A DNA stretch of 63,631 nt, filler included, from Craspedostauros australis (lineage: Eukaryota): assembly GCA_030167865.1 (NCBI GenBank). It is 16 parts of 16 records of this genome, joined end to end, with 100 filler letters (N's around TTAATTAATTAA, not from the genome) between each part and the next. Parts side by side here need not be neighbours in the genome. Positions count along the whole stretch, not along the records: positions 13,042 to 30,050 come from JALAGF010004466.1; 15 more parts are not named here. One strand, given 5' to 3'. Below are positions 3,285-41,293 of this stretch, piece by piece; the stretch's first letter is position 1, and each line of letters starts with the position of its first letter. The notes under the pieces are model-generated. The model saw nothing but the letters and a program-made list of their open reading frames with translations. It searched no databases and had not been told where the DNA came from. A program made the translations under genes and the position numbers.

Positions 3285-4474
3285 ATCAGTGGCTGTGTTG
3301 CGAGAGCAGTATGCTGGTGTGTTGGAGGTGGGCCCGTTCTGCTGATGCATCCTGCCACCACAAACACAGATGGGTACTACTCAGATCGGTACAGTTTCGG
3401 CCCTCACACACACACCACCACTTGAAGGGCCGATCAGAGAAGTACGCACAAATTGCCACACACGCATGCAAGCTTGGGAAGTCGTGGTAGTGTTGTGCAT
3501 CGCGGTGGGCCATGCTAGTGTTGGCACTGCGACCCCGTTCTGACCGTTTTGCATGCATCACTCCTTGTCCCGGCGAAAAACACAACGGCGGAACAAAAGG
3601 AACAGAACATGCTCCACAAACGTGGAAGCGTATTGGTTAAATGTTACTGTTCTCCTCACCAGTCCCACCTGCAGAAAACCGAGACGTGCAGGTAAGGAAA
3701 GGACCAACAACGAGAGAAAAGCGCTTCCAGCGTCAGTCACTTGAACGATCTTGTAGTCATCCTGGTCGATCTGAGGAAACTGCTGAGCCAAACCGAGGTG
3801 CCGTAGTGTGCCCAATAGCGAGCACGAGTGACGTCACAATGGCATGCTTCACGGGAATGGAGGCCAAACCAGCAGAAGGTGGCAACGACGCTACTGTGTT
3901 GTGTCATGATTGCCTTTGGGGACGAAGAAGGAGGCCAACCAGACAGACATTGTGACACACACTGTCTTCACACGCGTTACGAGTTTTCGTTTCGACAACA
4001 TCCAACGAGATGTGTTGTAGTCGAGTGGGTCAAGAAATGCGCAACAAGTGGAGCAGTGGTGTGGGCGTTGAAACCACGGGATGACCGCACCTCCCAGGCG
4101 TGGGCTACGGATTCCTGTTGTTGGGTGTTTGGGATGAATTGAAATTGTGGAACATGCGAATCGTGGATACGGTGAAACGCAAGCCGTTGTAGCGGGCGTT
4201 ACAAGAATAGATGAATCGAAGGTGTCATACACGACACGACTCATTTATTCAGGGTCGGTGAGAACAAACGCAAATGCGACAGAACGGCAACGAAAGTTGC
4301 AGCAACCACAGCGCAACAACCGAGAATGGTGTGGACGAAAGATCTGGCAGAGCCAAGGAAAGGCACCAACGCACCGACCAAACGACTACACATCCGTGCG
4401 TGCATCCTCACACACGCAGGCATCAACGATTGTGATCCAAGCTGCCGCTGCTATCCCGTAGCGTTTGTTCCAAA

Positions 4475-10067: not shown

Positions 10068-11075
10068 AAGACATGAAGTGGATTATTCGACAATGACATG
10101 GCTATTCGATAAGGCATTCAGCGAACACCGCCAAAGGTGTCACTCTCGTCCTTGTGGGTGTCTGTTTTGCTGTCCATTACGCACGAGTAGCTCCTATGCA
10201 AGGCACTATACAACATGTACAAGCACTCGATCACTCTGCCACTCCTGGCATCACTCATCGCCATCAACGTCGCAAAGACTGTCGCACCAGTGCATGGGTC
10301 AGGACAGGTCGCAGATTCGCCCGTGCGCCATTGTTTGCTGCGACTCTGGAGAGAGACGACACATCGCGAACTCTCTTTGCGCTCGTTTCAGGTTTGTTGT
10401 CGTTTCTGCTGCAGTAAACAGACAGACACTTGATCAAACACACTGACATTCAAACGCGACACATCCACAAACATGTAAACGGACAATTGATGATCGTTTT
10501 TATTCTATATTTTTCGGGATCAGAAACCCCTTTTAACCACTGTCCCCAAAGGAGTTTGGAAGACGACACGTTTCGGGGGAGGCGATAAAGTCACCGAATG
10601 ACTCGATTGATCCATCCCGCCAAACAAGAATGGAATTTGTGCACCTCAGTTCCGTTGCATCCGAGAAAAACCGCACTCGACACGAAAACAAGCAAAGAGA
10701 CACTGCGCGGTAGCGCACAAAACTACGGCGAAGCAACTTCCACCGAAAACACGCGAACGCACAACACGACGCGGGTGCAGAGAGCGCAACGGGAAACGAG
10801 AAAGGACAGACACACGCTCCCTCTCCAATTTCTGGGAAGCCACCAATTCCTGAAGCCGTCCTGTGCGCGTGATTGCCACAAGAGGACTGCTTCTTTTGGT
10901 CGCACCACTTTCCGCCATCCATTTCCATACCAAACGTCGCCAAGTGGATAGTGACGCCCATCACGGAGGCAGCAGCTGCAGCCTGGAGCAACCTCGGTGT
11001 CAAAAAAGAAGCACCGATTCAAAGAGGAGGCGCAGTCGCCGCCAACCCCGACGCTCGTCGCCTTTTCTTCCCACG

Positions 11076-12941
11076 ATGAACGCGGCGTCGACCGAGAGAC
11101 TTGCGGTATTACGTCAGAAACAAGACGAGGGTGAGCCGTTCGATCTGAGGGAACTATTCGAACTCGAACTACTCGAGGATGACCACAACGACAATGAAAT
11201 TCATGAAGATGACCTCCTCGTCCTTGACATCATCCACAAGAAGCACAGGGGAGACGAACTCACCGACGAAGACCTGGATGAGCTCGACCACTTCACAAGA
11301 GCCAGGCTTGATGTGCTCACGCAAAATGAGCTCGCGGACATGTACGACATGCAGGATGAAGGCGAGAGTATCGATGAAGATCGCCTGTACGAACTGGAGC
11401 TGTTCGAGAAGCGTCGAGCGGAGGAGGAATTGAATGAGGATGAGGAGTACGAGGTGGTGCTATTCGAGCGTCGCATGCTGGGTGAGGAGCTGCAGGATGA
11501 CGAGCTGGATGAGCTTGACATGCTGAGAGAAGAGCGGCAGCGGCTTGCCTTGGATGACGAGGAAAATGGCGTTGACGATGAGGAAGATGGCAACGCAGGC
11601 ATCGAAGATGGCGTCAACACTGAAGGTGCAGACGAAGAGGGGGAGGGGGATAGCAAAAGTGACGATGGTGCTGGTGCGATCCACATCGAAGAGCTGGGAG
11701 AGCTTGAGGAGCTCCGAAGTCGTCGTGATCGAGGAGAGTCATACGATACAGAGCTGCTGTATGAGCTTGAGCTATTTGAACGTGCCGATGCCGGTGAGGA
11801 TCTGACTGACGATGAACTATTTGAGATAGATTGCTTTGAGAGAAGACGGCAAGGCGAAGATCTTGATGAGGATGATCTCGACGATCTCGAGCTTCTGAGG
11901 CAAGGCCGGGCGGAGTCAGCGCCCGACGATGGGATAAACGACGGCGACGGCGACGATGGCTCAACGATGTCCGCGAAGGACATCGCCAGCGATGACGATG
12001 ACAACAATAATGAATCTGACCAAAGCCAATCTTTTCGTTTGGCTGACGATGGTGAGAACGGAGACGACAGCGAAAATTTGCAGAAAGACACAGCGCACGT
12101 GTCGGTGTTGAGCCAGGAATATGATTCGCAAGAATCCGAAGAGTATCATGAGACACAGAACGACCAGAGTTCCAAAGACTTTGGAGATGATCAGTCAGAA
12201 CTTTCAATCGGTGCATCCGATCATGACATCAGTGACTCAGGGCCGCCGATAATACAACAGCTGGAAGAGCCGCCCGATCCAGGCGAACTACGCCAAGAGG
12301 AAGTCCAAGACGCCAGCATCGATACACATCCGAAGACACAGGTTGCATTGCAACTGAATGGAGATTCGTCGACGAATCTGAAGTCATCGCAAGAACTTGA
12401 GAACGACATCCTCGAGGAGATCACCACACTCAAACAACAACTCAGCGACGGACATGACATCGATCATGATGCGCTCTACGAAGCTCAGCTCATCCTGAAG
12501 CACCTCCGAGACGACGATCTCGACGAAGACGAACTGTACGAAGTTGATCTGTTTCAACGACGGAGAGAAGGCGAGGATCTCGCCGATGAGGATCTGGAGG
12601 AGCTTGAGATGTTGAGGATGGAGCGTGAGGAGAGGCGTGCGGCTCAGAGAGCAACTGAGCAGCTGTTGGAGGCTACAGCAAAGCAAGCATTGGAAACAGA
12701 TGAAGCTCGCGATCTGGTCGACGGGATCGATGATGCCTCGAGTGATGGTGAAGGATTCGATGGTAGCAGCCATGTAGATGGCGTTAGCATTGACGAAGGG
12801 ACGGATAGTGGCGGCGTGGATGCGGATGCGGACATAGATATGGATATGGATTTGGATATGCGTGAGGGTGTGGATGATGGACGAAAGTGCGACCCAGATG
12901 ACAGCAGTCATGGTGGATCAATCGAGGCACCTGTTGATGAA
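11076..12941 (+). CDS. Highly acidic protein with ~20-aa helical repeats (GE.L.ED.LYELELFERRR), 3'-truncated by contig end
   Basis: ORF of more than 620 codons with coding-like composition and four clusters of the repeat separated by D/E/S-rich linkers; first ATG at 11076. Confidence 0.75.
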
Positions 12942-13041: not shown

Positions 13042-13120
13042 TAATGAAATAGCAAACGAACGACTATCAACCAATACCATCTTCCACGATCGTAGGTTAC
13101 CGTGAGCGGAACTTGCCAAC
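13042..13120 (+). mobile_element. 3' end of an LTR inserted into the gag of family A
   Basis: Ends ...GCCAACA exactly where homology to the intact family-A gag (SGV|VGETLSIKY, seen near 62220 on the minus strand) begins. Confidence 0.65.
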
Positions 13121-16100
13121 AGTTGGGGAGACTCTTTCCATCAAGTACCATGATGCCATCGTCGCATTCCGGCTGGACCAATCCTGGACCAAGAGCCGTG
13201 AGCAGTTCTTTGATGCCTGGGAGACCAAGCTCGATGATATCGAAGAGCTCGACGATGCATGCGTCGATGAGGCGGTCAAGCAGCAATGGCTGCGCACCGC
13301 TATTGGTCCTGACGTTGACTTGACTCGGGCATATACCAACACCAAGTCCAACTCTCGTCAACGCCACAAGCAGTCTCGTGGTTTCATCAAGATTGGTGTC
13401 TCTTTCGAGGACCTTCTCGAGTTCGTCCGTGACGAAGCTCAGTCCCTCGATGCCAACCAACCTTGCACTACATCCAAGCGCAAGGTCAACAACGCAAAGA
13501 CCTCGGACTCCAACAACAAGGGCAACGGCAAGGACTACTCCAAGGATCATCGCTGCTCCATTCCCAACGAAGAGTGGCATGGCATGTCCAAGGACCAGCG
13601 CAAGGCTTTCCTCGACGTAAAGGGGAAGTGGCACAAGAACAAGGGCAAAGGCAAGGGCGATTCCAATCGTTCTGCCAACAATGCCAACACCTCTTCTGGC
13701 AGCGGCACAGTTCCTTCCGGCACCCCTCCCTCGGGTAGCGATCCTTCCAAGGCTGATGACCCATCTACCGCCGTCGACCGCCTTCTCGTGCAGACCAAGT
13801 CCAGCTCTTCATCCAATGACACTCCTCAGTTGGTCTACAAGGGCCAGACCTGGCGTCTCGCGAACTCCACTGTGGTCCGATACAGCTTCAACAAGCTTGT
13901 CAAGGATCACTCCGGATCCCTCGTCGACAGTGGTGCCAATGGCGGCCTGGCTGGCAATGATGTCCTCGTTCTCTGCAAGACAGGACACACGGCCGACGTC
14001 AGTGACATCGGTGATTCCGCCATCGCCAACCTCGACATCGGCACTGTCGCGGGACTCATCCAGACTACCGACGGACCCATCATTGGTACATTCCATCAAT
14101 ATGCGCTCTACGGCAAAGGCAAGACCATCCACTCCACCAACCAGCTTGGTGCCTTTGGGATGGACGTCAACGAACGCCCTCGCCACCTTCCAGGTGGTCG
14201 CCAAACCATCGTCACTCCCAGTGGCCACATCATCCCGTTGGCCGTTTGCCAGGGCCTGTCCTACATGGACATGGCCAAGCCCACTCGCGCGGAACTCGAC
14301 AAGTACCCGCATGTCGACTTCACCGCTGACGATGAGTGGGACCCTTCCTCCCTCGACTGCGAGATGACCCTCGACGACGTCGCCCATGATGACGCCGCAG
14401 CACTTCAGCGTCGCAAGAACAACAACACCGTTCTCGCAACACAAGCTAATGCCCGCCAGGCCGACATCGCAGACAATCCGGGCAGTGTCATTGCTACACG
14501 CCAGCCTGCCGACTACGAGGCACTCCGCCCTCACTTCGGCTGGATTCCAGCTCGTCACGTTCGCGACACCCTTCGGTGCACCTCCCAGTGGTACCGTACC
14601 GCCGAGCGCTTCTCCATGCGCAAGCATTTCAAGTCTCGGTTCCCAGCAGCCAACGTCGACCGCCTCCATGAGACGGTGGCAATGGATACGCTCTTCTCAG
14701 ATACCCCCGCTCACGATGACGGGGTTCTGGGTCATGGCGGGTGCACCATGCTTCAGGTGTACGTCGCCCTCGACTCTCGGTTCACGGCCGGCTTTCCCAT
14801 GCCATCTGAGAGCCGCATCTCCGATACCCTTCGTGACTTCATCCGACGCCACGGGGCTCCCGACCTACTGATGTCCGACAACGCCAAGGCTCAGATCGGC
14901 AACAAGGTCATGGAGATCCTTCGGCAATACCACATCCGGGATCACCAGAGTGAGCCGGAGCACCAGCACCAGAACGGCGCAGAGCGCCGGATCCAAGATA
15001 TCAAGCGCACCACCAATGGTGTCATGGATCGCACGGGGACCCCCGACCAATTCTGGCTGATATGCACGCTCTATGTGATTGATCTTTTCAATCACATCGC
15101 GCAGGTCACCGCCGGTTCCATCACCCCCCTCCAAGCCGCCTTCGGTCAACAACCGGACATCTCCAAGTTCCTCTCCTACCGATGGTGGCAACCGGTCTAC
15201 TACCGGGTTGACAACCCCTTCTTCCCCAGCCAGTCCAAGGAACGCAGTGGACGCTGGGCTGGTCCCTGTCTCCACAAGGGAGACAACCTCACCTTCTGGG
15301 TACTTGATGATGAGACCCAGCGGCTCCTTTCTCGCTCCGCCATCCGACTGGCTGACGACTCTTCCACCTGCAACCTTCGTGCGGACTTTCCCTTCCCCAT
15401 TGTTTGGGAGGATGATGGCTCTGATGCCATGGATACGGCGTCTGGGGAGCCTGACGACGATATCCCCGTTCCTCCGGACCTCGATCCCATTGTTCACTGT
15501 CTCTCCGATTCCATCCTGGCCGACCGCCGTGGCACAGACCCCGAAACAGTGGGGAATGCAAAGGTCCACATCCCAAGGTTCTCTCCTGAGGATCTTGTTG
15601 GGATGACCTTCATCCACGAGAAGGATGGTCAACAGGTCCGAGCTGAGGTGGTGCAGAAGGTCAATGACCTTGACGCCGCCAACCACTAATGCATCAAGAT
15701 GCTCCTCTCATTGGCAGATGGGGAGACACATGACCTGATCTCCTATGTCGAGCTCGCTGACATCATCGAACGTCAGCGAGAGCACAGCGACGATCCTGAT
15801 GCCAAGTGGGAGCTCGACTCCATCGTCGGACATGAAGGACCCCTCACATCTTCCTCCCCCACCTACAAGGGATCCAGATTCAACGTCATTGTGAAATGGG
15901 GAGACGGCTCCACCTCCACTGAGCCCCTTTCCATCATGATTCAAGATGACCCTGTCTCATGCGCTGCCTATGGCCGCCGCCACGAGCTACTCGACGAGCC
16001 TGGCTGGAAGCGCCTCAAGCGCCTTGCCATCCGCACCCACCGTCTCGAGCGCCAGGTCCACAAGTCCAAGACCTTCTCCCATGCCCTGACCTTCCAGTTC

Positions 16101-17797
16101 GGTGTCCAAGTCCCTCACAACCACAAGGAGGCGATGAGACTCGATGACAAGAATGGCAACACTCTCTGGGCCGACGCCGAGAAGAAGGAGATGGACCAAC
16201 TCTTTGGGTACCGTACCTTCAAGACCCTTGGGAAGGGTGCCCCGGTACCCTCTGGCTTCCAGAAGATCCGCCTTCAGTGGGTCTACGCTGTGAAGCATGA
16301 CCTCCGTCACAAGGCGCATTGCGTCGCTGGCGGCCACCTCACCGAACCCTGCAAGGATGCGTCCTATGCAGGCGTGGTCAGTCTTCGCTCCCTCCACCTC
16401 TCCCTCCTCGCCGGGGAACTCAACGGTATTCCAACATGGGTCGGAGACATCGGCAATGCGTATCTTGAGGCCTTCACTCAAGAACGCATCTGCTTCATCG
16501 CAGGCGACGAATTTGGTGACTTTGCTGGTCATACCATGCAGATAGTCAAGGCACTCTACGGCCTGTGCACATCGGGCGCCCGGTTCCACAAGGCCCTCGC
16601 CGACACCCTTCGCGACATGGGGTTCCTCCAGTGCCGCTCCGATCCTGACGTCTGGATGCGAGACGCCCAGTTTCACTGGGAATACGTCTGTGTCTACGTC
16701 GACGACCTCACCGCCACCATGGTGGATCCCAAGACCTTCTTTGACACCCTCTCTTCCAAGTATGGGTATCAGCTCAAGGGAGTTGGTCCCATCAAGTACC
16801 ACCTCGGTGCTGACTTCGACCGCGACCCCGACGGCACCCCAAGCTCTCTCCACAGTCCTACATCAAACGGATGCTGGAGAACTACGAGCGCATGTTCGGT
16901 GAGCTCCCTCGCAAGGCCAGCTGCCCCCTCGACAAGGCCAACAGCCCTGAACTGGACACTTCTTCTGAACTCTGCAAAACCGACAAACGCAAGTTCATGT
17001 CCCTCATCGGTGCACTCCAGTGGTGTATCTCCCTCGGGCGGTTCGACATCTCTGTCGCTGTCATGACGCTCGCACGCTTCCGCTCGGCTCCCCGCCAAGG
17101 CCATCTGGACCGCGCCAAGTGCATCTACGGGTACCTCCGCAAACACCCCGATGCAGCCATCCGCTTCCGCACCTGTGTGCCCCGCTTCGACAAGTACTAC
17201 GAGGTACCCAATCATGACTGGATCTATTTCGTCTACGGGAAGACCTCCGAGGAGATCCCGGATGATGTCCCCGAGCCCAAAGGCAAGCCTGTCCGAACCA
17301 CCACGTTCGTCGACGCCAATCTCCTTCACTGCCAAGTCACTGGCAGATCGGCCACCGGTGCCCTCCATCTGGTGAACCAGACTCCCATCGAGTAGTTCTC
17401 CAAGCGTCAGGGTATGGTAGAGACCGCCACCTACGGGTCTGAGTTCGTTGCCGCTCGACAGGCAACTGAGCAGATCATCTCCCTTCGCCTCGCTCTCCGC
17501 GAGATGGGTATCCCGATCGACGGCCCCAGCTGGATGCTGGGTGACAACCAGTCCGTCATCACCTCCTCCACAGTCCCCAAGAGCATGCTTTCCAAGCGCC
17601 ACAACGCACTGGCCTACCATCGAGTCTGGTCCGCTGTCGCCGCTGGCATCCTCTACTTCATCAAGATCCCCGGCACCCAGAACATCGCCGATGTGATGAC
17701 CAAGTTTCTTCCATGGGCTGTCTTCTGGCCCCTCGTGAAACCTATCCTCTTCTGGAAAGGACACACTGAGCCCGCTTCCTCGACCTCCAAGACCTGA
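13121..17797 (+). pseudogene. gag-pol: Family A CoDi-type copia gag-pol (Gag C-term, PR, IN, chromo-like, RT, RNase H), disrupted
   Basis: PR LVDSGANGG; IN TVAMDTLFSD / LMSDNAK / HQNGAERRIQ; RT WVGDIGNAYL, KALYGL, YVDDL; RNase H FVDAN..TG, VETATYGSEF, GDNQSV, NIADVMTK. Lesions: TAA at 15687-15689, frameshift near 16840, TAG replacing TGG at 17393-17395. Confidence 0.93.
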
Positions 17798-18971: not shown

Positions 18972-19378
18972 ATTATATTCACCCAACTCCATTGAGCGAC
19001 TTCCTCTGCCAACCGCTCGCACGGTCTCTCAGAGACCAAGCCAAAAGGCGCAGCTCGCAAACCGAGCAACCCAACTCAAGCAAGACCCCAAAGGTCTTCA
19101 TTCGAATGCATCTGAAGCATCATCAAACGCCAGCGCTCGAAAACCGAGCAATCCAAGACAAAAGTCCCAACTGCTAGTGACCGACAGAGTCACCTGACAG
19201 CAGCCTCTGCCAAGCAAGCAATCCAACCGCTTGAACACCAAGCGCTTGTCTCCTCAAGAGCTTTCGCCGAGCCTCAGTGCACACCTTCCAAAGAAGTGAG
19301 ACCGAGCGAAATCAGCAGGACGCAAGAAAGATCGATCCTTGAAGTCCGAAGACCTCTCTGAAGCCCACGCCATCCATC

Positions 19379-22300
19379 ATGGCGGATGAGGCTATTCCCC
19401 TCACGCTGGAAGAGCTGCAAGTGCAGCTCCAAGCGCTCACCGCTGAGAATGCGCGCCTCACACAGGCCGCAGTCACAGCCGAAACAGCTGTAGAAGCAGC
19501 AAGGGTGGCCGCGGCAACCACGCAAGCAGCGTCGGGCGCCAGCGCCACCCCTCTCCGCCCTGGTCTGAACCCCGGTGGAACCGGGACAACAACTCGTGAC
19601 GATCTCAACCCTTCCTTCCTAAGCGGGAGTCTCTTTGGCGACATTGAGACTCCAGGAACCAAAAAGAAGATCGACCCCGGAAGCGACAGCGACGACGGAG
19701 ACCCCGACCTTTCCGGCAAGCCCACAGCCCCCATCATGGGGGGTCTCCGCATGCAAGGGCGCAACTGGGTCCCCTGGACAGGAGGAGCACCGAACTCAAC
19801 CTGGACGGGCCTCGAAGACAAATCCCAGACCATGTGGACGAACTCCCAGCAGCAGAGAATCCTTCACAACGGGGCGGACTCCACCAACCAATCCAAGCGC
19901 GAAACTGGGTTGTCCGACAAGTTCAAGAAAGGGAACAGCATTCAGCAGTTCGTTCGCCTTGTGCGAAACCATCTGTCGAAGACTGGACTCATCACCATGG
20001 CCTACATCTCTACCGACACGGCCACACCCAAGATGACCTGTGTTCTCGATGCTCCGGCTTCCTTCACTCTTGAAGACGCCACAAGGCACTTCGATGAGTA
20101 CAGTCCGAGATGGGATCACTACGACGTCCAGAACAACTGGACGGCCGCAGCCTTCTTCCGTGACAGCCTTGACCCAACCCTCGAAGACCAGCTCATGAAC
20201 CGCATCGAGCCAAAGTACCACAACAACTTCATCACGCTCTTCATCGAGTTCATGAATAGTATCACAGCCAACTTGCTGGATGAGCAAGACATGATCACGG
20301 ATCGCATCCGCTCCGTCCGAAGCCACCAGTTTGCTGGTGACAACGTGGGATCCATGGCCGTCCATCTCCGCTCGCTCTGCAAGCACCTCGACGACGCCGG
20401 TCGCTTCGACCTCCGTCTCCTCCGCAACATCCTCGACGCCTTCCTCCAAGCAGGGGGGAAGAGCCTCTCCGGTGAACAGTACCGGCGTCCTCTCTATGTG
20501 ATGAAGGATGACCTTGAGAAGATCCTCATGCGTCTCCCTGTATTCACGTACGAGCACGCCCTACCAAAGCTAGCCGCCAAGGACCTCACATGGATGGCGA
20601 TTTGCAACAAGGCACAGTCCTCGTACGACAACGAGGTACGCGGGGACCGCTGGCACGCCACTCGGCGCGTCAGGGACACCGGTGTCCCTAGAACGTCGTA
20701 CGCGAACAACGCCACGAACAAGCACAGCGCCAATGTCCTCGAACAACACAGAGGGTTCACCAAGAAGAACGGAACGAAGGTGCCACCCAAGAAGGACAAA
20801 GAACAGGACAACAACAGCAACTCCAACCGCGGATGGTCTTCCAAGCCGCCCAAGCCTGGGGAACCACAGCGCAAGCTCGTCAACGACAAGACCTTCATGT
20901 GGTGCGCCAAGTGTCGCCGATGGCGCCTCTCGCACAACACTGAGAGTCACCAGGACAACTTCAAACCCAGGGCTAAGGCGAAAGGCAAAGGAAGCCCCAC
21001 GACTGACAACCTCGAAATCGACATGGCAGCTTGGACGTGCTTCACCGCCGCAGGCAGCCAAGATGAAGACACCTGGTGGTCTCTAATCTGGAACCTCTTC
21101 ACCTCCTTCAGCTACCTCAGCGGAACCATCGGCTCGCTCCTGTTTTTCACAACGCTTCAAGTCGCAACACTAGGAGTTGAACATGGATGGTACATCGCGG
21201 CAACAAACGTCTGGATGGTCACAGCCATCGCGTTGTTGCTACTACACACAAACGTCCCGCGAAGGCCACACACTCTCCGCTCCAACAACCGCGCTTACGC
21301 ACAAGCAAGAGCCAAGGAAGAAGCCAAACGACACCAAGTTCGACCAACCCGCTTCAACGAGGCTGTGACTCGCAGTCTTCATGATGTGATGATCGAGCGG
21401 ACCAAAATGTCCGACCAAACGCCAAAACGCAACAAACGTCGCTGGATTCGCCGAACCCGAACCAAAACTCGCAAATCAAAGCCAAGGCATCCCAACCGAA
21501 GTGATCCAAAATTGTCAACCAAGCCACCCACTTATGGCAAGAGACACCACGCGCCACCTCAAAGATCGCCCTGCGTGACTGACCAGCACTACCATCGCAC
21601 TTTTGGAGGACAACCCCTCTCACATGATTTTTGGCGCCTGTATCCCACACTCGACCTCACGACTGGTGAACGCGAAACCACAGCATGCTCCACTTCGTTT
21701 GAAAATCTCCTAACTCTCCATGGTCTTGCGTCTTTCTTCACCAATCGTCATGCTTTCGCTTCCCCCCAAAAAGCCGAAAGGTATCTGTCCCCCAGTGACC
21801 CTTTTGAGCTAGTGTGGGACAGCGGGGCGTCAATTTCTGTCACCAACGACATCAACGACTTTTGTGACACTCCAAACGCTCCCCCAAAACCGACTTTCCT
21901 CAATGGATTCTTGAAAAAGATCCAAGTGAAAGCGCTTGGGACTGTGGAATGGCATATCCTGGATGTGACAGGCAGCCCGCGTACACTAAGACTGCCCGCT
22001 TTCCATGTACCTCAATCGCGAGTCAAACTAATCAGCACGTCTAGCCTTCTAGAAGAGTACCCCGGAGAAACCATCACCTTTGTCAAAACCTCCTGCAAGC
22101 TCAGCGGAATCAAGGAAGGCAACGAACGAAACGCAATCATCGCAATCTACAAGAAGACAACGAAGCTACCCACCTCCATCGGGTATGGCTCGGACAACAT
22201 CAACGATCTACCGTCGGCGCTCTCTTCCATCGTCTCTACTGTATCGGAACACAACGTGAATATATCTGAACCGCAAAAGGAACTGCTTCGATGGCACTAT

Positions 22301-25300
22301 CGCCTCGGGCACTTATCCTTTAGTCGAGTGAAGTTCCTACTGCGATCAGGTGTGCTCACAGGGTCCGAATCATCAAAGAAGATGCACACGGCAGCTGCCA
22401 AAGTGATAAGTCTCCCCCTCTGCGCTGCATGCCAGTTCGGCAAACTGCACCGCCGCCCATCACCAGGCATAACTCAGCATGTCGTCCATGACAGGCAAGG
22501 AGTTCTACGCACCGACCACTTGTTCCCGGGCCAACAAGTATCCGTCGACCACTTCGTCGGGCGCACGCCAGGACGCCTCTTCTCAGGACGAGGAAAAGGC
22601 GACCCAACTGACATGTATAAGGGTGGAGCCATCTTCGTAGACCACGCTTCGGGCTACATCCACGTGGAACCCGTGGCCGCTCTCACGACTCATGCTACTC
22701 TAGAAGCAAAAGAGAAGTTCGAGCTTATGTGCCGCGATGTGGGCGTACCCGTCAGATCCTACCTCTCGGACAATGCAACCACATTCACATCGCCAGAATA
22801 CACGAGACACCTCGAGGCCTTCCATCAGGTCCACCGGTTCGCTGACGTAGGGGCTCATCACCACAACGGGATAGCTGAAAGAAGCATCCGAACTATTGTG
22901 TCAATGGCTAGGACCATGATGATGCACCAAAGCATCCACTGGCCAGACATCTTCGACGCGCAACTGTGGCCGATGGCCGTGGTACACGCGGCTTACATCT
23001 ACAACCGCGTTCCTAACCCGGCTACAGGACTAACCCCCTACGACATACTTGCCCGTATCCGACTTCCGCTCAAGCAACTACACAACCTACATGTGTGGGG
23101 CAGCCCCGTCTATGTCTTGAACAAAGCGCTGGCTGATGGACGCAAAATTCCACGCTGGGAACCAAGAGGCGAACGATACGTGAACATGGGTCTCTCAACA
23201 AAGCACGCGTCCACGGTTCCTCTGGTACTGTCGCTACGAACCGGATCCATCACACCGCAATTTCATGCCGTGTTCGACGATTGGTTCGCCACTATATCAA
23301 CGGACCCCAAGCACTTGCCCGACTATCAATCCGAAGAATGGACGCGGATGTTTGGAGACACGACGTTCCAGTACCCATTCGACGAAGACGATGCGGAAGC
23401 CATGGAACAGGAGGAAACTTTCGCGTCGGATGCCGTCGATCAGGAAAGACTGCAACGCAATGACGCCCCTGCCCCAGAAACCTCTCCACCAGCTGTATAC
23501 CAACTACCACCCGAAAAACGGGAATCGGGAACGAGTTCGGTACCTCCAAGCGAAGAGCTCCTGGTGACCCTGCCGGTGGTTGACGCCCTCAGCGACACTC
23601 CGACTCCTCCGATGCAAGCCTCAGAGGGAGAGGTGCCACGGATGCAGCCAACTGAGGGAGCCGTAAAGAGCTTTCCAGAAATTGAGCAAGCAGAGCAACC
23701 GACTCCGCGGATTCTACGACCGGAACTCACACCGGTACCGCCGATCGCCTTGAAGCACGAACCGGCTTCCCCAACCTACACGCGAACATCTTCTCCAGCC
23801 CCCATCACCGACGAAGCTGCTCCAGCACAAAGGCCGCGGAGCACACGAGCGCGCAAACAACCCCTGCGTTTCACCTACCAACGCTTAGGAGGCAAAGCCG
23901 CGTGGCTGGACGACGAGGACGCCGAGGAGTACTACTTCTGTCCAGCGGTAGCTAGCATGCATGAGGACGAAAACGATGAGACAGCGATTCAACTACACCC
24001 TGACTCATCCTCTCTGATGACGTTCTCACATGCTATTCTCGATTGCCTTCAAACGATTGAACCCCTCCAACGAAAAGGCACTGACTCTCTCTCCATCGAC
24101 CTTCACCAATTCAAGGTGGACGCCCACTACCTTCTACGTCGATTGAGGCTGCGTTTCAAAACTTTGAACCCGCACGCCCCAAATCGTTCGCTCCCACCGC
24201 TTGAGCCAAAGCACGACAACCGCAAAACGGAAGCCTACGTCAACATGGCCGATTGGTGGGTCCCCGACCCCGACGCCATGAACGATGAAGGCCTCATCAA
24301 CTTCGATGAGGTCTACGAGGGTCTCTATAACGACACGAAAGCGTACTTCGACGAAGGTCTCAACCAACTCATCTGCAGCGAAAGCAACAGGATCCTACTG
24401 ACGAACTACGCAGTAGAGAAGCTCATCAACAAGCTTAGCGAATTCATCCGCACTGGTGCTACAAGCCCTGACTTCGACGCCCTGGACTTCCTGCGACACG
24501 CAAAGAGAGGCGGATGGCACAAAGATGACATCGAGACCTCGCTACGTGCAGGCTTGCTGCCACCGAAGAGCAACACCAACGCCAGCACCCTGTGGAAGCG
24601 AGCACAGTCCGTGTGGACCGAGATCGGCCACCACCCTCGCGCTCGTCTGATGTACGAACTGCTCCGACGACAGATCACCACCCTGCGCCCTGGACCTTGG
24701 CCATTGCCGAATGAACGCGATGTGGATGAGTTTGCTCTTGAGTTGTGGCCTTTCAACGCAAAACCGCTGTTGACAGAACCCAACACACGAAATACGGACA
24801 ACAACGCATCACCACATTCGCTTCTGCGCGTCGACCCGACAACGATCCTCGACACCAAGCACATCATCCCGTCAGCCAACTGGGCCAACATCGAGCAACA
24901 TGCATACGCTGCATCACTCGTCGAACCCAGCTCGGATGCGACCAACTACCCTATCTATGTGGACGGCCACATGATGAGTTACTTCGTTACAGGCGGGGAC
25001 TTCAACATTGCTGAACGCTTGGCAGCCTACAAAGCATCAACCAACGATCCAGACACTCTCTCCTTCGATGAAGCACTGAAGGACAACAACAAAGAAGAGT
25101 GGATGCAAGCCGCAAGCAAGGAGATCAAGGAACTCACCGAAAAGGGTACTTGGGAAGAAGTGGACAGTACCCGCATCTTCGACACAGTCTACCCTGGAAC
25201 GTGGGTCTTCCATCGCAAGCGCCTTCCTGATGGCACCATCAAGAAATACAAAGGACGCTGGTGTTGCCGAGGCAATCTTATGAAAGAAGACGCCTCCACC

Positions 25301-25740
25301 TACACTCCGGTCGTGGCATGGTCGTCCGTCCGTATCTTCCTGAGCACCGCCATCGTGATGGGCTGGCCCACGACTTCGATGGACTTCACCAACGCCTTTG
25401 TCCAGGCCAAGATCCACAAGCCTGTCTACCTCTGTCTCCCGCGTGGGTTCAAATCCAGCAAAGGCGCCAACACGTGCCTCAAGCTCAACAAAAGCTTATA
25501 CGGTTTGACTATTGCTCCACGCCTCTGGTATGATCACCTCATTAAGGCACTCCTTGGTGAAGGCTTCAAGGCATGCGATCAGGAACAGTGCCTGTTCATT
25601 AAGCCGGAGATTATGATCGTACTCTACGTCGACGACGCCGGCATCGCGTCCAAAACGCAAAAGGTGGCAGACGAATTCATCGTGTCGATGCGCGGACGCG
25701 GGTTCAAGCTCACTCAAGAAGGCAGCTTCACAGAGTTCCT
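19379..25740 (+). CDS. gag-pol: Family B Ty1/copia gag-pol polyprotein, uninterrupted but truncated within RT
   Basis: Zn knuckle WCAKC..W..SHNTESH; PR LVWDSGAS; WHYRLGH..CAAC; IN VSVDHF, SDNA, HHNGIAER; RT DPDTLSF, DFTNAFVQA, KSLYGL, YVDDAG. Homology ends at EGSFTEFL (25740). Confidence 0.93.
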
Positions 25741-26007
25741 AATAGAGCCCAAACGTAATGGCTGTTGTCTGGTAGGCTGTTGTTAGCTGTAGGGCAGAGG
25801 CTTGATTGGCAAGCGGTCCGAACGAGAGTCTTCTGTTCCACAAGTAGTCGATTGAGAATACTGGTAGATGGTGAAGAAACGTGCGGATTATGTGATTGTG
25901 CAATTATTCTTGTTGGTGTGACACCCTGTGTGGGTTGCCCTGGAAAATGGTCGTCGGGTTTGCATAGCCCAAGTACCACAGGAGGGGGCCCTTTTGTTGG
26001 GTTGCTG

Positions 26008-29000
26008 TCAGAAACGGGCCGTAGGGTTTGCGTAGCTCCAGTACCATGGGAGAGTTTCCTTCATGGAGTTGGAAGCTGGGCGAAGGTCATCTTGCGTGTA
26101 CTCCCACGTGGAACTGTACCGTCGATCCAGCAGTCTTGTATCGGCATCAAGTTTTTGGTGGGGAGGGGTTCCGGTGACCCAGTCATTGGGACCCTTTTTC
26201 CATGGGTCCTGGACTTCAAAGAGTTTCTTCGAAGACTTGTGCCTGCTCCAAACGTGGTAATGTCCGAAACGTGGTTCAGACCGATTCGTGGGAAAACGAG
26301 TCATGTGTTCCGGGAAATCCTTCCTTAGCCTAACTGCTAGTTTAGCTCTATTACTCCCCTTCATCTCACGTCGCAACGTGAGTTGACTGGAAGCAAGAAA
26401 GCTAATCGTAGCGTTGACCGTGGTGCAGCCCAAGATAGCAGCATGCACATTCCATGCATCAAGTTCGTCGATGTCTTCACACATGGGATCTTGGCTGTCT
26501 TCGTCCGCCAATCGTTCCAGTTCTTCGTTGAGCCTTGTGGTGATGGTGGTCTGTTGGATCTCATTGATGTGGGTCATTCCTCCACGGTGGGGGGTGGCGG
26601 TAATGTCTTGGGTGGCTTGGTCCGATCTGGGATCAGTGCGGGGGACTGCTCTGATCCTGTTGGTAGGGTCAAGGATGGGCAGATGGTTGGGCATGTAATC
26701 CATGGCTGTCGTTCGTGCCCTTGGCATGACGTTGCAGGATTGGATTCGCCTTGGGGACGGATCTGGCTCTAGCATGAGAAAATCCTTTCTGGTCCTCTTC
26801 CTTGGGTTGGTGGCCTCCTTGGCACCTGGTGCCGTCATGGGGAACGATCTTCCGGTCACCGACCCGTCTTGTGGGGTCAATGGCATTGGGTGCATATCCA
26901 AATGCTCCTCTCCCAGCCTTGGTCTGGTTGCTGGGCGTAGAGATGGGCTCGTCGCGATCTTCCTGGGCTGATTGGGAGCATCGAAGATCCTCACCATGAT
27001 CTCTGGGCTCCTGGGTGATAATGGTGTTCCCGCTGATTCATCAAGGGTCTCACCTGGGGAGTCGCCACGGTCGTCGATGTGGTTGCTGGCATGGGTGGTT
27101 TGGGTATGCGCCTGGTTTGGGTTGGCATCGTCTGGTCGGTAGATGGGTGCCGACTCCTTGATGCCCAGAGATTCTGACTCTGGCATGTCCTTCTTGTTGG
27201 AAGGATCTGGGGCCTTCCGGGGCGTTCTAGACTTGTCAATGTAGAATCCCCTATCATGAGTACCGGTCAAGATCTTGGGTGGTGGCGACGCATGTTGGAA
27301 GCGTTGGACTGGTGGCCTGGGGATGGGCAACGACCTGGTGACGATTCCTTGTGCAATTGCAGCTTCCGTGTCAGTGGTTTCCCTTGGCTTGGCTGCGCTG
27401 GTTGCTGCGGGTTCCTGATCAATGTACCCTTCTGGAACCTCTGGTACGAATTGCCCATTGACTGTCTCTCCTTCCTTGAGGCGGGGTTGTCGATCATCGA
27501 TTTCAGGGATGCCGTTGACTATCTCATCCTCGGTGATGGGTAGAATAGGATCCCGTTTGAGTGCTGCTTTTGGCCATTCCAAGTTCACTGCAATGGGGTC
27601 GCTCTGGTTCTGGATACTTTGTGTCTGCTTCGCTCGTGTGAGGATGGCAGGAATGCAGTTCTTCCTCAAACTGAAGACGTGGCAGGTTGATGGTCTCTGA
27701 TTCGTGGATCTATCCATGCTGGGTTTCTCTGCCCATGCGCCATCGTCAGCTGGGTAGGACCACTGTCCATCAGCGATTGCGATGCTGAGGACCTCTGTAG
27801 CCTTGAGGTCTTCATCGGGATATTCGTGGAGGGAGAGCGGGAATACGGATTGGCTGTCTGCATAGGACATGGTGTCAGCGTGGACCTTCCTGTTGCCCTT
27901 GGTACAGGTGATACGGACCCTGTGACCATCGTAGCCTGTGACAATTCCATGGAAGGTTCCCTTCTTCCTTGCAGGGTACAGTACCTGAGAGCTGAGAACG
28001 TGTTCCGGCGTGACGGAAATCCGAGGCGTCAAGCTTTCCGATGTCAATGAAAAATTGATGTCTGGCAGTGGGTTGGGTTCTGTTGCAGGATCCGTCGGAG
28101 ATGCGTCGACGGGTTGGTGACGAACATTGTCCCCTGATCCGTTACTGGGATTGCGATCGGTAGTGGTGACAAGGATGTCGGGCGTCTCGCATGCGACAAC
28201 AAAGCTCGGTGGGGCCCATCGGTTGGATTCGGCCAATGTGATTGCGATCGGTGTGACGGGTCTGGGTGGCCTTCTCTGGGACCTCTCTAGACGGGTCGGC
28301 TCCCGTCGAGTTCTCGTGAGCCAGAGGGTAGTTGACGATGGGCTGATATTCATGCGTGTTTGTTGGTACCGGATGACATTGATGTTTCTTGTATCAGCAC
28401 GTCTCTTGCTGTGGTATGATTGCGCCTCTGGTCGATCGGTTGGCAGGTCGGGGTCGTCTTCCGCTCTGGTGACCTTGGCGCGCGTTTTCGCGGGGAATAC
28501 GATTTCGTGGTGGGGCCCTGGTTCGTATATTGAGTTCCTGAGGACCGTCTTCGATGCGATGTGGCGGAAGGGGTTTTTGGAGAGTGGTTTGGTGAGGATG
28601 TCAGCGGTGTTGTTGATTGAAGCAATGCACCAGAGTACGATGATACCTGCGGCGATGCACTCTCGGGTCTGGTGGAATGCCGAGGAGCAGTGTTTCTTCT
28701 TCAAACGCGATGGAGGGACCATGGTGTTCAGAACCATTGCCTTGTTGTCTCTCATCATAATTGCTGGTCCATCAATGGGTAGTGCGAGGTCCATCAGCGT
28801 ATGTCGTAGCCCGGTTTTTGACTTCGTGGCACTCCTAGCGGGGCCCAGTTTCGATCCATGTGTGGGGTTCTCCACAGTGTCCTGTTGTTTGCAGATGGTC
28901 TTGATTTTAGATCGGTTCGTCCTGTGCGAATTGATCCTCCAAGGGATGTCCTTTCTGGCGTTGATGGTAGAGGGGGGTCGCTTCTCTTGCCTGTTCCTCC

Positions 29001-30050
29001 CATTCCCTCCCCTTTCTTCGGGCTCGTCATCCATTTGTTGGTAGGATGGTGGTCCCGACGAACAAAGAAGGTACGGCGGCCCTGGATCGGGGCCTTCCTT
29101 CTCATGGGGCTTGTGTGCCATTGGTTCGATGGAGCTGGTAGTCCTTGTGAGCTCCCCTGTCCCGGGAGGTTGCTCTTCAATGGTGGGCGCTGCATGCAGT
29201 GAGGTTCCGGCATCGTCATGCATCGGGGTTAGGCCATTCTTGTCTTGGGTTGCAATCGAAAGGTCATATTGGCCATCACGATGGTCACTCCAATTGAAGG
29301 TCTTGTCGCCTCCATCCAGGTCCTCGGTGAGATAGCAACTCCTGGGTATGTTGCATACGTGTCCACCCTGATGGTCTGGTGGGTTCCGTTCCTGTTTCGG
29401 GGTGATGTCATGTGGGGGGAGGTCCTCGTCATCTTCCATGATAGGAAGCACGTCGAATGTCATCAATGCATCCCTCATCTCCAGGTTGATGATCTTGTTT
29501 TCATCAGGCATTAGACACTGTCGTCCTGTTCCTGACATGGGGAACAATGCCCGATGTTCTGTCGAGACCATGTCGAGGACGGTTCTGCTTGCCCCGGTTT
29601 GGTGGTTCACCACTTGAAAGGAAGCCATATCGCTCGTGAACCTGATGGGGTCCAGGATGGGTTGCCGTTTCGCCAACTTGGCTGATGCTGATGGGGTTTC
29701 ACCATGGTTGGCTTCCTGATGGTGAGAGTAATCAGGTACGTGTTGCCCATGGCAAGTACNNNNNNNNNNNNNNNNNNNNNNNNNNNNNNNNNNNNNNNNN
29801 NNNNNNNNNNNNNNNNNNNNNNNNNNNNNNNNNNNNNNNNNNNNNNNNNNNNNNNNNNNNNNNNNNNNNNNNNNNNNNNNNNNNNNNNNNNNNNNNNNNN
29901 NNNNNNNNNNNNNNNGCACGTATCCCATGTGAACAGGGGCTCCAATAGGCGGGAATCCTTCTGGGTGGGGTTGCACATACGCCGTATGTGGTTGGCCATA
30001 TGCGTGAGGAGGCCCCATGTTATGTGGGTATCCATGGTATCCTTCGTTGT
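26008..30050 (-). mobile_element. Internally deleted CoDi-like copia ORF (PR C-terminus to degenerate RNase H) with a long C-terminal extension
   Basis: Post-protease motif G.Q.L..D..INLEMRDALM..LP..DIT; RNase H remnant KQQDTVENPTHGSKL..PIDGPA..RDNK..LKKKH..N.ADILTKPL at 28890-28537; no IN or RT motifs between them; frame open to 26008. An N gap lies at 29760-29915. Confidence 0.72.
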
Positions 30051-30150
30051 NNNNNNNNNNNNNNNNNNNNNNNNNNNNNNNNNNNNNNNNNNNNTTAATT
30101 AATTAANNNNNNNNNNNNNNNNNNNNNNNNNNNNNNNNNNNNNNNNNNNN

Positions 30151-33540: not shown

Positions 33541-33885
33541 GGTCCTACGGTGACAACGCACTTTTTGCGCTTCTGTTAAAGGCATAATCGGTCCTACGAT
33601 CACAACGCACTTTTTGCGCTTCTGGTAAAGGCATACTTGGTCCTACAATCACAACGCACTTTTGCGCTTCTGTTAAAGGCATACTTGGTCCTAGGATCAT
33701 AACGCACTTTTGCGCTTCTGTTAAAGGCATACTTGGTCCTATGATCATAACACACTTTTGCACTTCTGTTAAATGCATAATCGGTCCTACAATCATAATG
33801 CACTTTTGCGCTTCTGTTAAAGGCATAATCGGTCCTACGATCATAACGCACTTTTGCGCTTCTGTTAAAGGCATACTTGGTCCTA
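33541..33885. repeat. 48-bp tandem repeat, at least 7 copies, running into an N gap
   Basis: GGTCCTACGATCATAACGCACTTTTGCGCTTCTGTTAAAGGCATA(A/C)T(C/T) starting at 33541, 33590, 33639, 33687, 33735, 33783, 33831 and 33879. Confidence 0.93.
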
Positions 33886-38229: not shown

Positions 38230-38879
38230 TATTAATAAACTAGAAACAAATATAAGAATCATAGTGGACGCCGATTTTGGTTTAATGTCTTATTTTGATT
38301 TTTATGGACACCTCGATTTTGCGCTCATCTAGACACGACTAGCGCACTACGGCCAGATTTGGTGTCTTGGTGCCTTGATTCGTGTCGCCAAAAGACAAAT
38401 TATCGATGTCAATTGCAGGGCTAATTTATTTTTTTAGTCCCTCCATTGCGGCTCTGACACGTTCCAACAATTGTGTCCTCACATTTTGTTCCACCAAGTC
38501 AGGAGATTCCGTATTTTCCTTCATCGTGTGTGTCTCGCACGCAATTCGCTCCGAGGCTTCGTTTTCTTCTTGTCGCAGCGCGATTTCTTCCTCTTCTGAT
38601 CTTGTTTGTTGTGCAGGCACGATTCCTGCATCAGCATTATTTGCGTTCGTTGGGAGTGGGGGAATTTTTGTGTTCGATGTGTTCGATGTGTTCGTTGCGT
38701 TCGTTGCGTTTCGTTTGATCGTACTTTCCGGGGTACGGATGTTCGCGGGCTTCGGTTTCGTGCGCTGATATGAAGCGGANNNNNNNNNNNNNNNNNNNNN
38801 NNNNNNNNNNNNNNNNNNNNNNNTTAATTAATTAANNNNNNNNNNNNNNNNNNNNNNNNNNNNNNNNNNNNNNNNNNNN

Positions 38880-41193
38880 AGGTGTAGGTATACCGGACGA
38901 TGGATGTCGGCTTGTACGAAGGCGTTTGAGAAATCAATTGACGTCGTGACCCAGCGAAGCAAAATGGAAAGGATGAGAAAGACGCGAACAGAGGACCAGG
39001 CAACGACCGGAGCGTAAGTTGCTTCCGTTTCAGTCATCATGTCGCCTCTGCAGCACCACCGTCCCTTATACTTCTTTACCGTGCCGTCGGGCATCCGCTT
39101 GCGCCGAAACACCCACGTGCCAGGGAAGATGCGATCAGTAGCGGTGGATTTTGGCACCTCAATCCACGTCCCCTTTTTGGTAAGGTCATGAATTTCTTTG
39201 TGTGCGGCTGCCATCCATTCTTGTTTGTTGTCGTCGTTCATCGCCTCGCTGAAGGAGAGGGTGTCGGGATCGGCCTTGGATGCCTTGTAGCTGACGTGTC
39301 GATCCGAGATGCTGAGATCGCCCCCGGTCGTGAAGAAGTTGAGCAAGTCGTACGTGATGAAGGCTCGGTGGTCGGTGTGGTCGTCGCCATCGTGCTCAAG
39401 GGTTGCTGCCATCGCGTAGTGTTCGTCGGTTTCGTCATTCTCATGTTGTTGTGAAAAATGGGCGTTTGTTGGAGCTGGGGCACGGTGTTCGGCCGGTTCG
39501 AATTCGCTTGGCGGAGCCATGATTGTCGGTGGCACCTCCGGCGCGACGCCGAGTTGGATGTGCAGGTGCAGTATGCCGATTTCAAAACGCTCGTCATGCG
39601 TAATGAGGTGCCAAGCGAAGCCCGTTCGTCGCATGAAGTCCTGCACTCGCTCGTCTTCGTCCGGTGGTCGTAGGCCATTTTCCATGGCGGCGATGGCCCG
39701 TTCCAGAGTGTATCGCTGGCCTTGCGTTCTTGGTATGAAGCCGAAGTATGAAACGGGGAGGTGGTATTCGCCTGTTTCGAGCATTTCTTCGACGGCATCG
39801 ACGAATCGGCGAATAGCGTAGTAAACGCACTGGCTCCTTGCGGCTTCCGTCGGGAATCGAAATTGCACTACATGGTCGAAGTAATGGCCGATGTGTCGAG
39901 TGATGTTGACATGGTGTGGCCAAAGGTGGCCGATGTCGATGGGGCGCATTGTGGTGCCTGGAAGTGGGTCGTCGTCCTCCGAGGACGAGTCGGAGTGATT
40001 GCTCATCATGAGGATGTGGTGCTCGTTGGTTGGCGTTCCTTTGCTAGCTTCCGCTTCTTCTTGTTCCTTGCGCATCCTGGCTCGGATTTCGAGTTGCTGG
40101 ATGCGAAGCATCCTTTCCATCTCGAGGTCGCCCTGCGCCCAATGTCGTTCCTCCCAGGTCAATTCGGTGGTGTCGAGTGTCGCCAGATTTCGGAGCATGG
40201 AGTCAGCGTCGCGCACCAGATCGTGGACCTTCTGTGTTACCATTTCATTTGTGTGGGTTGTGTAGCGCTGAAGGGTCGCGCGGCAGGTCTGGAGAGCGTG
40301 CTTCATGTCTTCCATGGCTTGGTCCTTGCTAGGTTCACTTGTTGCGATGGTGGTTACATTTGCGCTGGTTTCGGATGGTTGTGTGACGTCGTCGGCCCAA
40401 ACCACTTTTCCGCCCAAGGTGTCGTAGGTGAGGCGCTCAACGGTCCGTCGCTCTCGTGGTGTGCGTTTGTTGATGCGTTCAGAGCGGCGCAGTGGAGGTG
40501 TCTTTACTTTCTTCGTCGTGGGTTGCTCTGTCTGTGCGGTGATGGGTTTGCGCAGCGGTGAAGTCGGAGGAGAGTCGATTGGTGGTTGTATGTCGTCGTC
40601 ACTGTTGTCGTTGACAACTCCCTCTGTTGGCGGCAACGGTTCAGCGTGACTTGCTGGGTCTTCTCTGGCTCCCTCTGTCGACGGCATTGGTGGTATTGGC
40701 TTGTTGATATCGGTGGTTGTTGGCGAGCGGTTGATTTGCTGAGGTGGTTGCACTTGGTCGATTGGGGTGGCATCGGTTTTCGTGTGTGATGTTACGGGTT
40801 GCCTCAAAATGTGAGTTGGTGAATTTTGTTCACTCACAATCGGGGTTCTTGTGTTTGGCGTTTCTGGCAACAATTTTGCTGGCGGATCGTCGTCGTGTGA
40901 GGGAAGAAATCGCTGATGATCGGCTTCATCCTCTCGCTCGATGTCCCGCTCTTCCATAGCAATGACATCATCGTCATCGAACGGTATTTGATACGTAGTG
41001 TCGCCAAACATGTGCGCCCATTCCGTTGAATTGTAGTCTGGGAGATCAACCGGATCAGTCGCTATCGTCGCGAACCAATCGTCAAACACAACGTGAAATT
41101 GTGGTGTGATCGATCCTGTCCTCGGCGAGAGGACCAGCGGAACTGTGGACGCGTGACGAGCGGAGAGTCCCATGTTCACATAGCGCTCCCCAC
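38880..41193 (-). CDS. pol: Family-B-related pol fragment (IN C-term, extra domains, RT N-term)
   Basis: MNMGLS..HASTVPLVLS.RTGSITPQFH and DPDTLSF..PGTWVFRRKR..DFSNAFVQA closely match 23180-25430, while the intervening spacer is highly diverged. Confidence 0.92.
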
Positions 41194-41293
41194 NNNNNNN
41201 NNNNNNNNNNNNNNNNNNNNNNNNNNNNNNNNNNNNNTTAATTAATTAANNNNNNNNNNNNNNNNNNNNNNNNNNNNNNNNNNNNNNNNNNNN

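Follow-up and report, generated by a model that had tools for sequence, protein, structure and literature searches.

A conserved, putatively helical block in a lineage-specific insertion at the integrase/reverse transcriptase junction of two sister Ty1/copia-type elements of Craspedostauros australis

The stretch of DNA analyzed here (63,631 nucleotides, filler included; hereafter, the window) comes from the Craspedostauros australis assembly GCA_030167865.1 and contains several Ty1/copia-type elements, as identified with Pfam. Two of them, element 1 on the plus strand and element 2 on the minus strand, have in common an insertion of ~345 amino acid residues (aa) in Pol, located between two anchor motifs at the junction of the integrase (IN) and the reverse transcriptase (RT), and the sole clearly conserved part of this insertion is a block of 111 residues. 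The insertion between the anchors is the main new result, and it is the point that was missed in an earlier, first-pass annotation of this DNA, in which the block itself had been singled out. The best explanation overall, to which we assign about an even chance of being correct, is that the block is a conserved helical module with a role in protein contact, which two sister elements carry within their insertion between IN and RT. As such, it is a lineage-specific add-on of two related elements and not a new system; the first-pass description of an undescribed system was overstated, since the block was found in two sister elements only. The features to which the description refers are listed below, with P0003 and P0004 denoting the translated frames of elements 1 and 2, respectively.

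19343..25786, plus strand: element 1, unbroken frame of 2147 codons in the order gag, protease (PR), IN, insert, RT (P0003; first Met at 19379)
23168..23392, plus strand: element 1, conserved SH3-like block of the integrase C terminus, P0003 1276–1350, with 81% identity to P0004 19–93
23837..23878, plus strand: element 1, basic motif RSTRARKQPLRFTY, P0003 1499–1512, upstream anchor found by regular expression, resembling a nuclear localization signal (NLS) by position only
23915..24952, plus strand: element 1, lineage-specific insertion of ~345 aa, P0003 ~1525–1870, between LGGKAAWLDD and SYFVTGGD, isoelectric point (pI) 5.1
24344..24676, plus strand: element 1, conserved block of 111 aa, P0001, equal to P0003 1668–1778, from the pol-frame translation
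25046..25078, plus strand: element 1, RT N-terminal motif DPDTLSFDEAL, P0003 1902–1912, downstream anchor, conserved in relatives
25193..25741, plus strand: element 1, RVT_2 reverse transcriptase match (Pfam)
38880..41193, minus strand: element 2, separate contig of 2.3 kb, bounded by two N44-TTAATTAATTAA-N44 linkers, with the single open frame P0004
40424..40465, minus strand: element 2, basic motif RTPRERRTVERLTY, P0004 261–274, found by regular expression
39350..40387, minus strand: element 2, the same insertion, P0004 ~287–632, delimited by motif spacing and alignment, pI 5.1
39551..39883, minus strand: element 2, conserved block of 111 aa, P0002, equal to P0004 455–565, from the pol-frame translation
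39239..39271, minus strand: element 2, RT N-terminal motif DPDTLSFSEAM, P0004 659–669, found by regular expression

The two copies of the block (24344–24676 on the plus strand and 39883–39551 on the minus strand) align over their full length without gaps and with 22 of 111 residues identical, exactly at the positions listed by the first-pass annotation. The invariant residues include aromatic residues as well as Gly/Pro turn positions, present in the segments YFD, TG, and GL.PP. BLASTP, run as a single comparison of the two blocks, yields 36.6 bits and an E value of 5e-9 (20/99 identities, 0 gaps). The alignment also passed the shuffle check that had been suggested for it, in which one of the two sequences was shuffled 5000 times. 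The gapless BLOSUM62 score of 73, compared with a shuffle mean of -111.7 (standard deviation 21.7, z 8.5), and the Smith–Waterman score of 75, compared with a mean of 24.2 and a maximum of 56, were each reached in 0/5000 shuffles, and the shuffled pairs had 6.3 identities on average and 16 at most. Within the window, the blocks are each other's sole match (tblastn E ~4e-5, with the next match at E >= 2), and a two-sequence hidden Markov model (HMM) of the block, run against 968 six-frame pieces of the window, gave a next-best E value of 0.21. The rest of the insertion aligns at about the level of chance, both upstream of the block (z 2.3, 105/3000 shuffles as high) and downstream of it (z 2.1, 129/3000), in agreement with the earlier description of the flanks as unalignable. 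Their description as low-complexity was correct only in part: a Pro-rich stretch (Pro fraction ~0.2) is present farther upstream, before the basic motif, whereas the sequence directly next to the block is acidic and rich in His, with no simple repeats.

In both elements, the insertion begins after LGGK..W.DD and extends up to F.TGGD. The basic motif that precedes it, RRS.R.R..P.R[LF].Y(D..G), is conserved widely in this copia clade (relatives P0006–P0155), shortly ahead of the RT N terminus, and is a convenient landmark from which to delimit inserts at the junction; it could mark the NLS or the IN/RT processing region. The spacing from R..R..R[LF].Y to DPDTLSF.EAM is 389 aa in P0003 and 384 aa in P0004, compared with 20–66 aa, with a median of 40.5, in relatives; these are the 14 in which both motifs were found when a strict regular expression was run over 150 relatives and the two elements. 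Three more relatives have junctions of ~75–95 aa, as estimated by eye. Measured in Pfam coordinates, the distance from the end of the SH3-like domain to the start of RVT_2 is 639 aa in P0003 and 225–378 aa in relatives (20 of the 25 long ones, namely those in which the SH3 match is nearly full), whereas the corresponding distance in another copia element of the window is 264 aa. Both copies of the insertion are acidic, the GC content and the GC content at third codon positions (GC3) do not differ from those in the remainder of the element, and no self-similarity to the rest of Pol was detected in it (best E 0.047 over 26 aa).

The block is under protein-level purifying selection that is far weaker than the selection acting on IN or RT. 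Synonymous sites are saturated between the two elements, with a proportion of synonymous differences (pS) of 0.785 in the IN C terminus and 0.70 in the RT N terminus, where 11/31 and 18/45 four-fold sites, respectively, are identical. The ratio of nonsynonymous to synonymous substitution rates (dN/dS) between the two copies was computed as well; because of the saturation, the argument is based instead on the proportion of nonsynonymous differences (pN) and on the saturation itself. With neutral sites saturated, an unconstrained block would be found at chance (~6/111 identities) and would be as rich in insertions and deletions as its flanks. An identity of 20% free of insertions and deletions, located beside flanks that are ridden with them, therefore indicates purifying selection, and the first-pass view of the block as a selected region holds despite the saturated synonymous divergence. 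The pN of the block is 0.60, compared with 0.128 in the IN C terminus and 0.215 in the RT N terminus.

Of the 333 nucleotides of the block, 126 are identical in the two copies, with 38, 52, and 36 of 111 identical at codon positions 1, 2, and 3, respectively, the value being highest at position 2. The pol frame alone is open in both copies, and the BLOSUM62 score of 73 obtained in it compares with no more than 7 in the other five frames; the block is translated in this frame, within the polyprotein. The Kyte–Doolittle hydropathy profiles of the two copies are correlated across the block (0.48, 0/10000 shuffles as high), also at the 89 non-identical positions (0.376, 2/10000 shuffles as high), and register shifts of 1–4 residues change the correlation to values between -0.14 and 0.22.

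The domain order PR-IN-RT with an RVT_2-type RT, by which Ty1/copia elements (Pseudoviridae) are recognized, was found here. The Pfam matches of P0003 follow in the order Pol_BBD (825–904, E 0.002), gag_pre-integrs (965–1034, E 1.2e-10), SH3_retrovirus (1245–1312, E 0.052), and RVT_2 (1951–2133, E 4e-30), with those to Pol_BBD and SH3_retrovirus falling under the curated Pfam cut-offs. The frame of element 1 stops at 25786, within RVT_2, the match covering profile positions 17–204 of 244, and no pair of long terminal repeats (LTRs) was found for this element. P0004 spans the region from the IN C terminus to the RT N terminus, with RVT_2 at 703–788 (E 1.5e-8). A hydrophobic run of ~59 residues, located between gag and the protease of element 1 (21074–21250, plus strand; P0003 578–636), is the feature that the first-pass annotation had called a TM-like segment.

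The two elements are sisters with an SH-like approximate likelihood ratio test (SH-aLRT) value of 99 in a quick maximum-likelihood tree of 110 RT N termini, obtained by a quick search from which 42/150 relatives with <125 aligned residues were dropped. Their RT N termini are identical at 91/136 positions (67%), whereas the highest identities to database relatives are 56.5% and 60.5%. This sister placement, together with an identity of 67% as opposed to <=60.5% to any database relative, points to a single origin of the shared, insertion-bearing elements.

Outside the window, a HMMER search of 1.84 billion representatives with a profile comprising the insertion and the RT N terminus gave 13181 hits at E <= 0.001. 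In every one of the best 150 of these 13181 hits, the best-matching part begins no earlier than profile position 341, past the block; any hit confined to the block would be ranked lower than these 150 and hence lie outside that comparison. The HMM of the block did not find it in the 150 nearest RT relatives (best E 2), and none of the 17 relatives included in an alignment of the junction has residues in the block columns. BLAST and phmmer searches with the whole spacers gave matches only to the Pro-rich and basic-motif part and to the last 35–40 residues before RT. As far as sequence comparison goes, the block is lineage-specific and not a part of the conserved core of copia Pol. A Pfam-A scan of P0001 and P0002 returned 0 families at E <= 0.1, and this result, together with the absence of the block from the 150 nearest RT relatives, confirms the earlier placement of the block outside the canonical set of PR, IN, RT, and RNase H (RH).

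Sequence-profile searches of the PDB with the block gave a ribosomal protein as the best match, at E 0.76, with nothing above background. A word-indexed search with P0003 1560–1800 against proteins of 1180–3758 aa and of 30–1179 aa gave no match at the set thresholds, and neither did a search with the two-row alignment of the block against proteins of 196–2000 aa, words from element 2 not having been run on proteins of <196 aa. Scans of metagenome contigs with the block alone, as well as with the block and the RT N terminus, confirmed no relative. Two candidates were rejected. Four IMG/VR loci encoding a phage protein have only the seeded octapeptide in common with element 1, with an hhalign probability of 17% and no match to element 2, and were taken as chance; a BLAST pairing of the element 2 block with P0127 1026–1163 (E 0.31) has an hhalign probability of 0.06%. 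In a protein-language-model atlas, no usable match was obtained with the block of element 1. The first match to the block of element 2 scored 0.95 (166/256 features), a score that is reached about once in 100 by shuffled proteins, and corresponds to a cluster of 147 unnamed eukaryotic proteins of 188 aa, in which the commonest phylum is Bacillariophyta; this cluster is a lead only. The portions of the open-access literature available to us, including 10.1101/2025.10.24.684338, describe no non-chromodomain module at the IN/RT junction of algal copia elements. Similarly, the terms "spacer", "C-terminal", and "unknown function" do not occur in the available text of the CoDi description (PMC2806351), which describes only PR, IN, RT, RH, and gag zinc fingers.

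The structure of the block was predicted with AlphaFold2 from the two-row alignment as six helices, with a mean predicted local distance difference test (pLDDT) value of 56 and a predicted template modeling (pTM) score of 0.49; the best part comprises residues 21–40 (pLDDT 71–75). When the whole insertion was modeled in the same way, the mean pLDDT was 36, helices being predicted for the block and for one stretch upstream of it, and coil for the remainder. By composition, the region P0003 1366–1500 is Pro-rich and disorder-like, and the region 1636–1710 is order-like. The low-confidence model of the block gave 0 matches at E <= 0.001 when compared with the PDB using Foldseek, and the best Z of 4.9 obtained with VIA-align against 48161 chains is under the tool's own background for helical models. 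The block is thus predicted, with low confidence, to be helical. From the first-pass description of a folded helical domain, the helices are retained as a prediction, and the folded state is unsupported, either for the block alone or in the context of the insertion.

The preferred reading, a conserved helical module acting through contact, draws on the position of the insertion. The junction houses the NLS, the targeting domain, and the RT-activating tail of Ty1, as well as the chromodomain of CoDi-A elements, and for this reason a contact module is considered here. Judging by the positions in Ty1 and CoDi-A, the insertion lies in the interval where the copia IN/RT cut, as well as lineage-specific determinants of targeting and import, are situated. 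An amphipathic helical module in this position would remain attached to the C-terminal tail of the integrase or to the N terminus of RT, and it would work through protein–protein contact. Its role might possibly be the tethering of the integration complex to host chromatin or to a nuclear factor, leading to a biased choice of integration site, which is the role that we rank first, or else cooperation between IN and RT, ranked second; attachment, partner, and effect are all suggested by position. Several observations weigh against this reading. The RT of element 1 is truncated and the element has no LTR pair that could be found, element 2 is a fragment, and the activity of either is putative. 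The nonsynonymous divergence in the block is high (dN ~1.2, compared with 0.14–0.25 in IN and RT), its net charge is not kept (pI 9.25 in one copy and 5.63 in the other), and the AlphaFold2 confidence is low for the block as well as for the insertion. Just two sequences of the block were found, both in one assembly, and it is absent in the nearest relatives, so that it is not needed for basic retrotransposition.

An alternative is a weakly constrained linker, that is, a tolerated expansion of a length-variable IN-RT junction, in which the block would be kept only soluble, helical, and in frame, with no partner or activity of its own. We consider such a linker possible, if somewhat doubtful. 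The length of the junction does vary among relatives, from 20–66 aa, as found by regular expression, up to ~95 aa by eye, and the high pN of the block, the low confidence of its predicted structure, and its unconserved charge would all be expected of a linker, as would the lack of a homologue in word-based searches and among the 150 nearest RT relatives, which do not have the block. A linker does not readily account for a gap-free run of 111 residues beside flanks at the level of chance, for a hydropathy pattern kept at non-identical positions, or for 22 invariant residues that include aromatic and Gly/Pro turn positions, and because of these three properties the block looks more like a specific structure than like a passive spacer. 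Chance similarity or an artefact of alignment might be suspected from an identity of only 20% between two sequences that are both helical-biased in composition. Its probability is negligible, since the match is colinear, in frame, and flanked in each element by the same pair of anchor motifs, besides being the reciprocal best and only match in the window; the BLASTP E value, the uniqueness in tblastn, and the result of the shuffle test rule it out.

The first-pass annotation suggested that the block could be an accessory protein released by the protease, for anti-silencing, packaging, or targeting; on this reading, it would be a separate protein, cut from Pol on both sides and acting in trans. 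The IN/RT cut of Ty1, as described in the available part of PMC6952103, is bracketed by anchor motifs of the same two kinds, a second cut in an insert of 345 aa is conceivable, and the block lies between poorly conserved, likely flexible stretches. Nevertheless, this reading is improbable, as the block has no start codon, frameshift, or open reading frame of its own, no free-standing homologue was found in the word-indexed protein searches, and the portions available of the literature cited here report no fifth Pol product for copia elements. Capture of host sequence, with a fragment of a cellular gene transduced into pol and the block as a remnant of its domain, is very improbable. A precedent exists in the CoDi-A elements, for which capture of a chromodomain at the same place has been proposed (PMC2774666, in the portion available), and the atlas match of the element 2 block to the 188-aa cluster of Bacillariophyta could be read in the same sense, as a lead only. 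That cluster, however, could equally consist of fragments of the same element family, the block of element 1 has no usable match in the atlas, no Pfam, PDB, or word-based matches were found, and the GC content and GC3 of the insertion equal those of the rest of the element.

Whichever of these readings applies, a clearly bounded, lineage-specific insertion that contains one constrained block is useful, as is, for annotating and classifying these elements. With regard to the contact module, the available text of PMC2806351 describes microalgal genomes as gene-dense and their copia elements as stress-activated. A new module at the integrase C terminus could explain family-specific insertion preferences and would offer a handle on how targeting modules are gained. 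We can speculate that the block is the core of an undescribed accessory module gained by an algal copia lineage at the junction and unrelated, in both sequence and fold, to the CoDi-A chromodomain. Such a module would bind a protein of the host nucleus or chromatin and thereby direct integration or weaken silencing, although we regard this as rather unlikely; if true, diatom-type retrotransposons would have repeatedly used the junction as a docking site for targeting modules that they acquired independently.

The 15 N44-TTAATTAATTAA-N44 joints in the window (e.g., 2181–2280, 38780–38879, and 41194–41293), in which the central sequence acts as a stop linker in all six frames, show that separate contigs were joined here, and adjacency across the joints therefore does not imply physical linkage. 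Downstream of element 1, an open frame of 1249 aa on the minus strand (26011–29757) has no Pfam match (region 25741–30102). It includes a copia-type RNase H C-terminal motif, as seen by eye, followed by a long unmatched region, and may belong to an element of another family that is nested here or abuts element 1. A different copia-like element is located at 13053–17063 (plus strand), with PR-like and IN-like sequence recognized by eye, followed by RVT_2. Between its IN and RT, the segment 15804–15992 looks chromodomain-like by eye only (..VKWGDGS.S.EPL..), with no match in Pfam or PDB sequence searches; CoDi clade A elements reportedly have a chromodomain in this position (PMC2774666). An open frame of 696 aa (10854–12941, plus strand) is extremely acidic and contains many repeats resembling L(Y/F)E(L/V)(E/D)LFE(R/K)R..GE.L.D(E/D)(E/D)L, with no Pfam family. 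Tandem repeat arrays are found at 33564–33885 (period of ~48 nucleotides (nt)), 41837–43740 (228–247 nt), and 46270–47983 (195 nt). In turn, a host-like gene at 4436–5779 (plus strand) encodes a PA domain (PF02225, E 4e-10) and a RING-H2 finger (PF13639, E 1e-11).

The RT motif of Ty1 that is equivalent to DPDTLSF.EAM presumably lies within ~20 residues after the IN/RT cut. In the accounts of Ty1, as far as their text is available, this cut falls between RSKKRIHLIA and AVKAV, just past the last basic cluster (PMC6952103), the NLS comprises KKR at 596–598 and 628–630 (PMC2490736), and the C-terminal 260 aa of IN are disordered and hold an RT-activating segment, the bipartite NLS, and the Pol III targeting domain (PMC8487063). 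The insertion described here resembles this tail in being a lineage-specific sequence added to IN, as well as in its location after the SH3-like domain and a low-complexity stretch, with a basic cluster next to it and the RT N terminus directly downstream (PMC8487063, PMC2490736, and PMC6952103, in the same portions). The basic motif just upstream of the insertion would be the putative counterpart of the basic NLS near the IN/RT cut of Ty1. The comparison is one of position and description, not of sequence, and the two regions differ in that the tail of Ty1 is experimentally disordered and carries short motifs, whereas the block is a gap-free stretch of 111 aa with conserved hydropathy and predicted helices.

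A chromodomain provides the second comparison. Integrases of the diatom CoDi clade A have a putative C-terminal chromodomain (PMC2774666), and this module occurs in algal copia elements, where it is thought to guide integration (PMC2774666; 10.64898/2025.12.07.692804; available portions of both). The block is similar to the chromodomains of CoDi-A elements and Ty3/gypsy chromoviruses in being an accessory module at the IN C terminus, which in the copia order is the IN-RT junction. It differs in being about twice as long, in having no Pfam Chromo match at E <= 0.1, and in being predicted as all-helical (at the pLDDT given above) instead of consisting of a three-stranded sheet and a helix. The possibility left by the first-pass annotation, that the block would match an already described CoDi integrase C-terminal domain, is thus answered by the lack of resemblance to the clade A chromodomain as described in the accessible text of PMC2774666.

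The landing sites of LTR retrotransposons are set largely by attachments at the integrase C terminus, namely the chromodomain, the targeting domains of Ty1 and Ty5, and the CR motif. The targeting domain of the Ty5 integrase is a short, non-chromodomain targeting determinant at the IN C terminus. The CR motif of CRM elements, according to the available text of 10.64898/2025.12.07.692804, is likewise a non-chromodomain targeting determinant located at the IN C terminus, as the block would be. Both the Ty5 targeting domain and the CR motif are short and have a known or proposed partner, in which they differ from the block, and their likeness to it is one of position.

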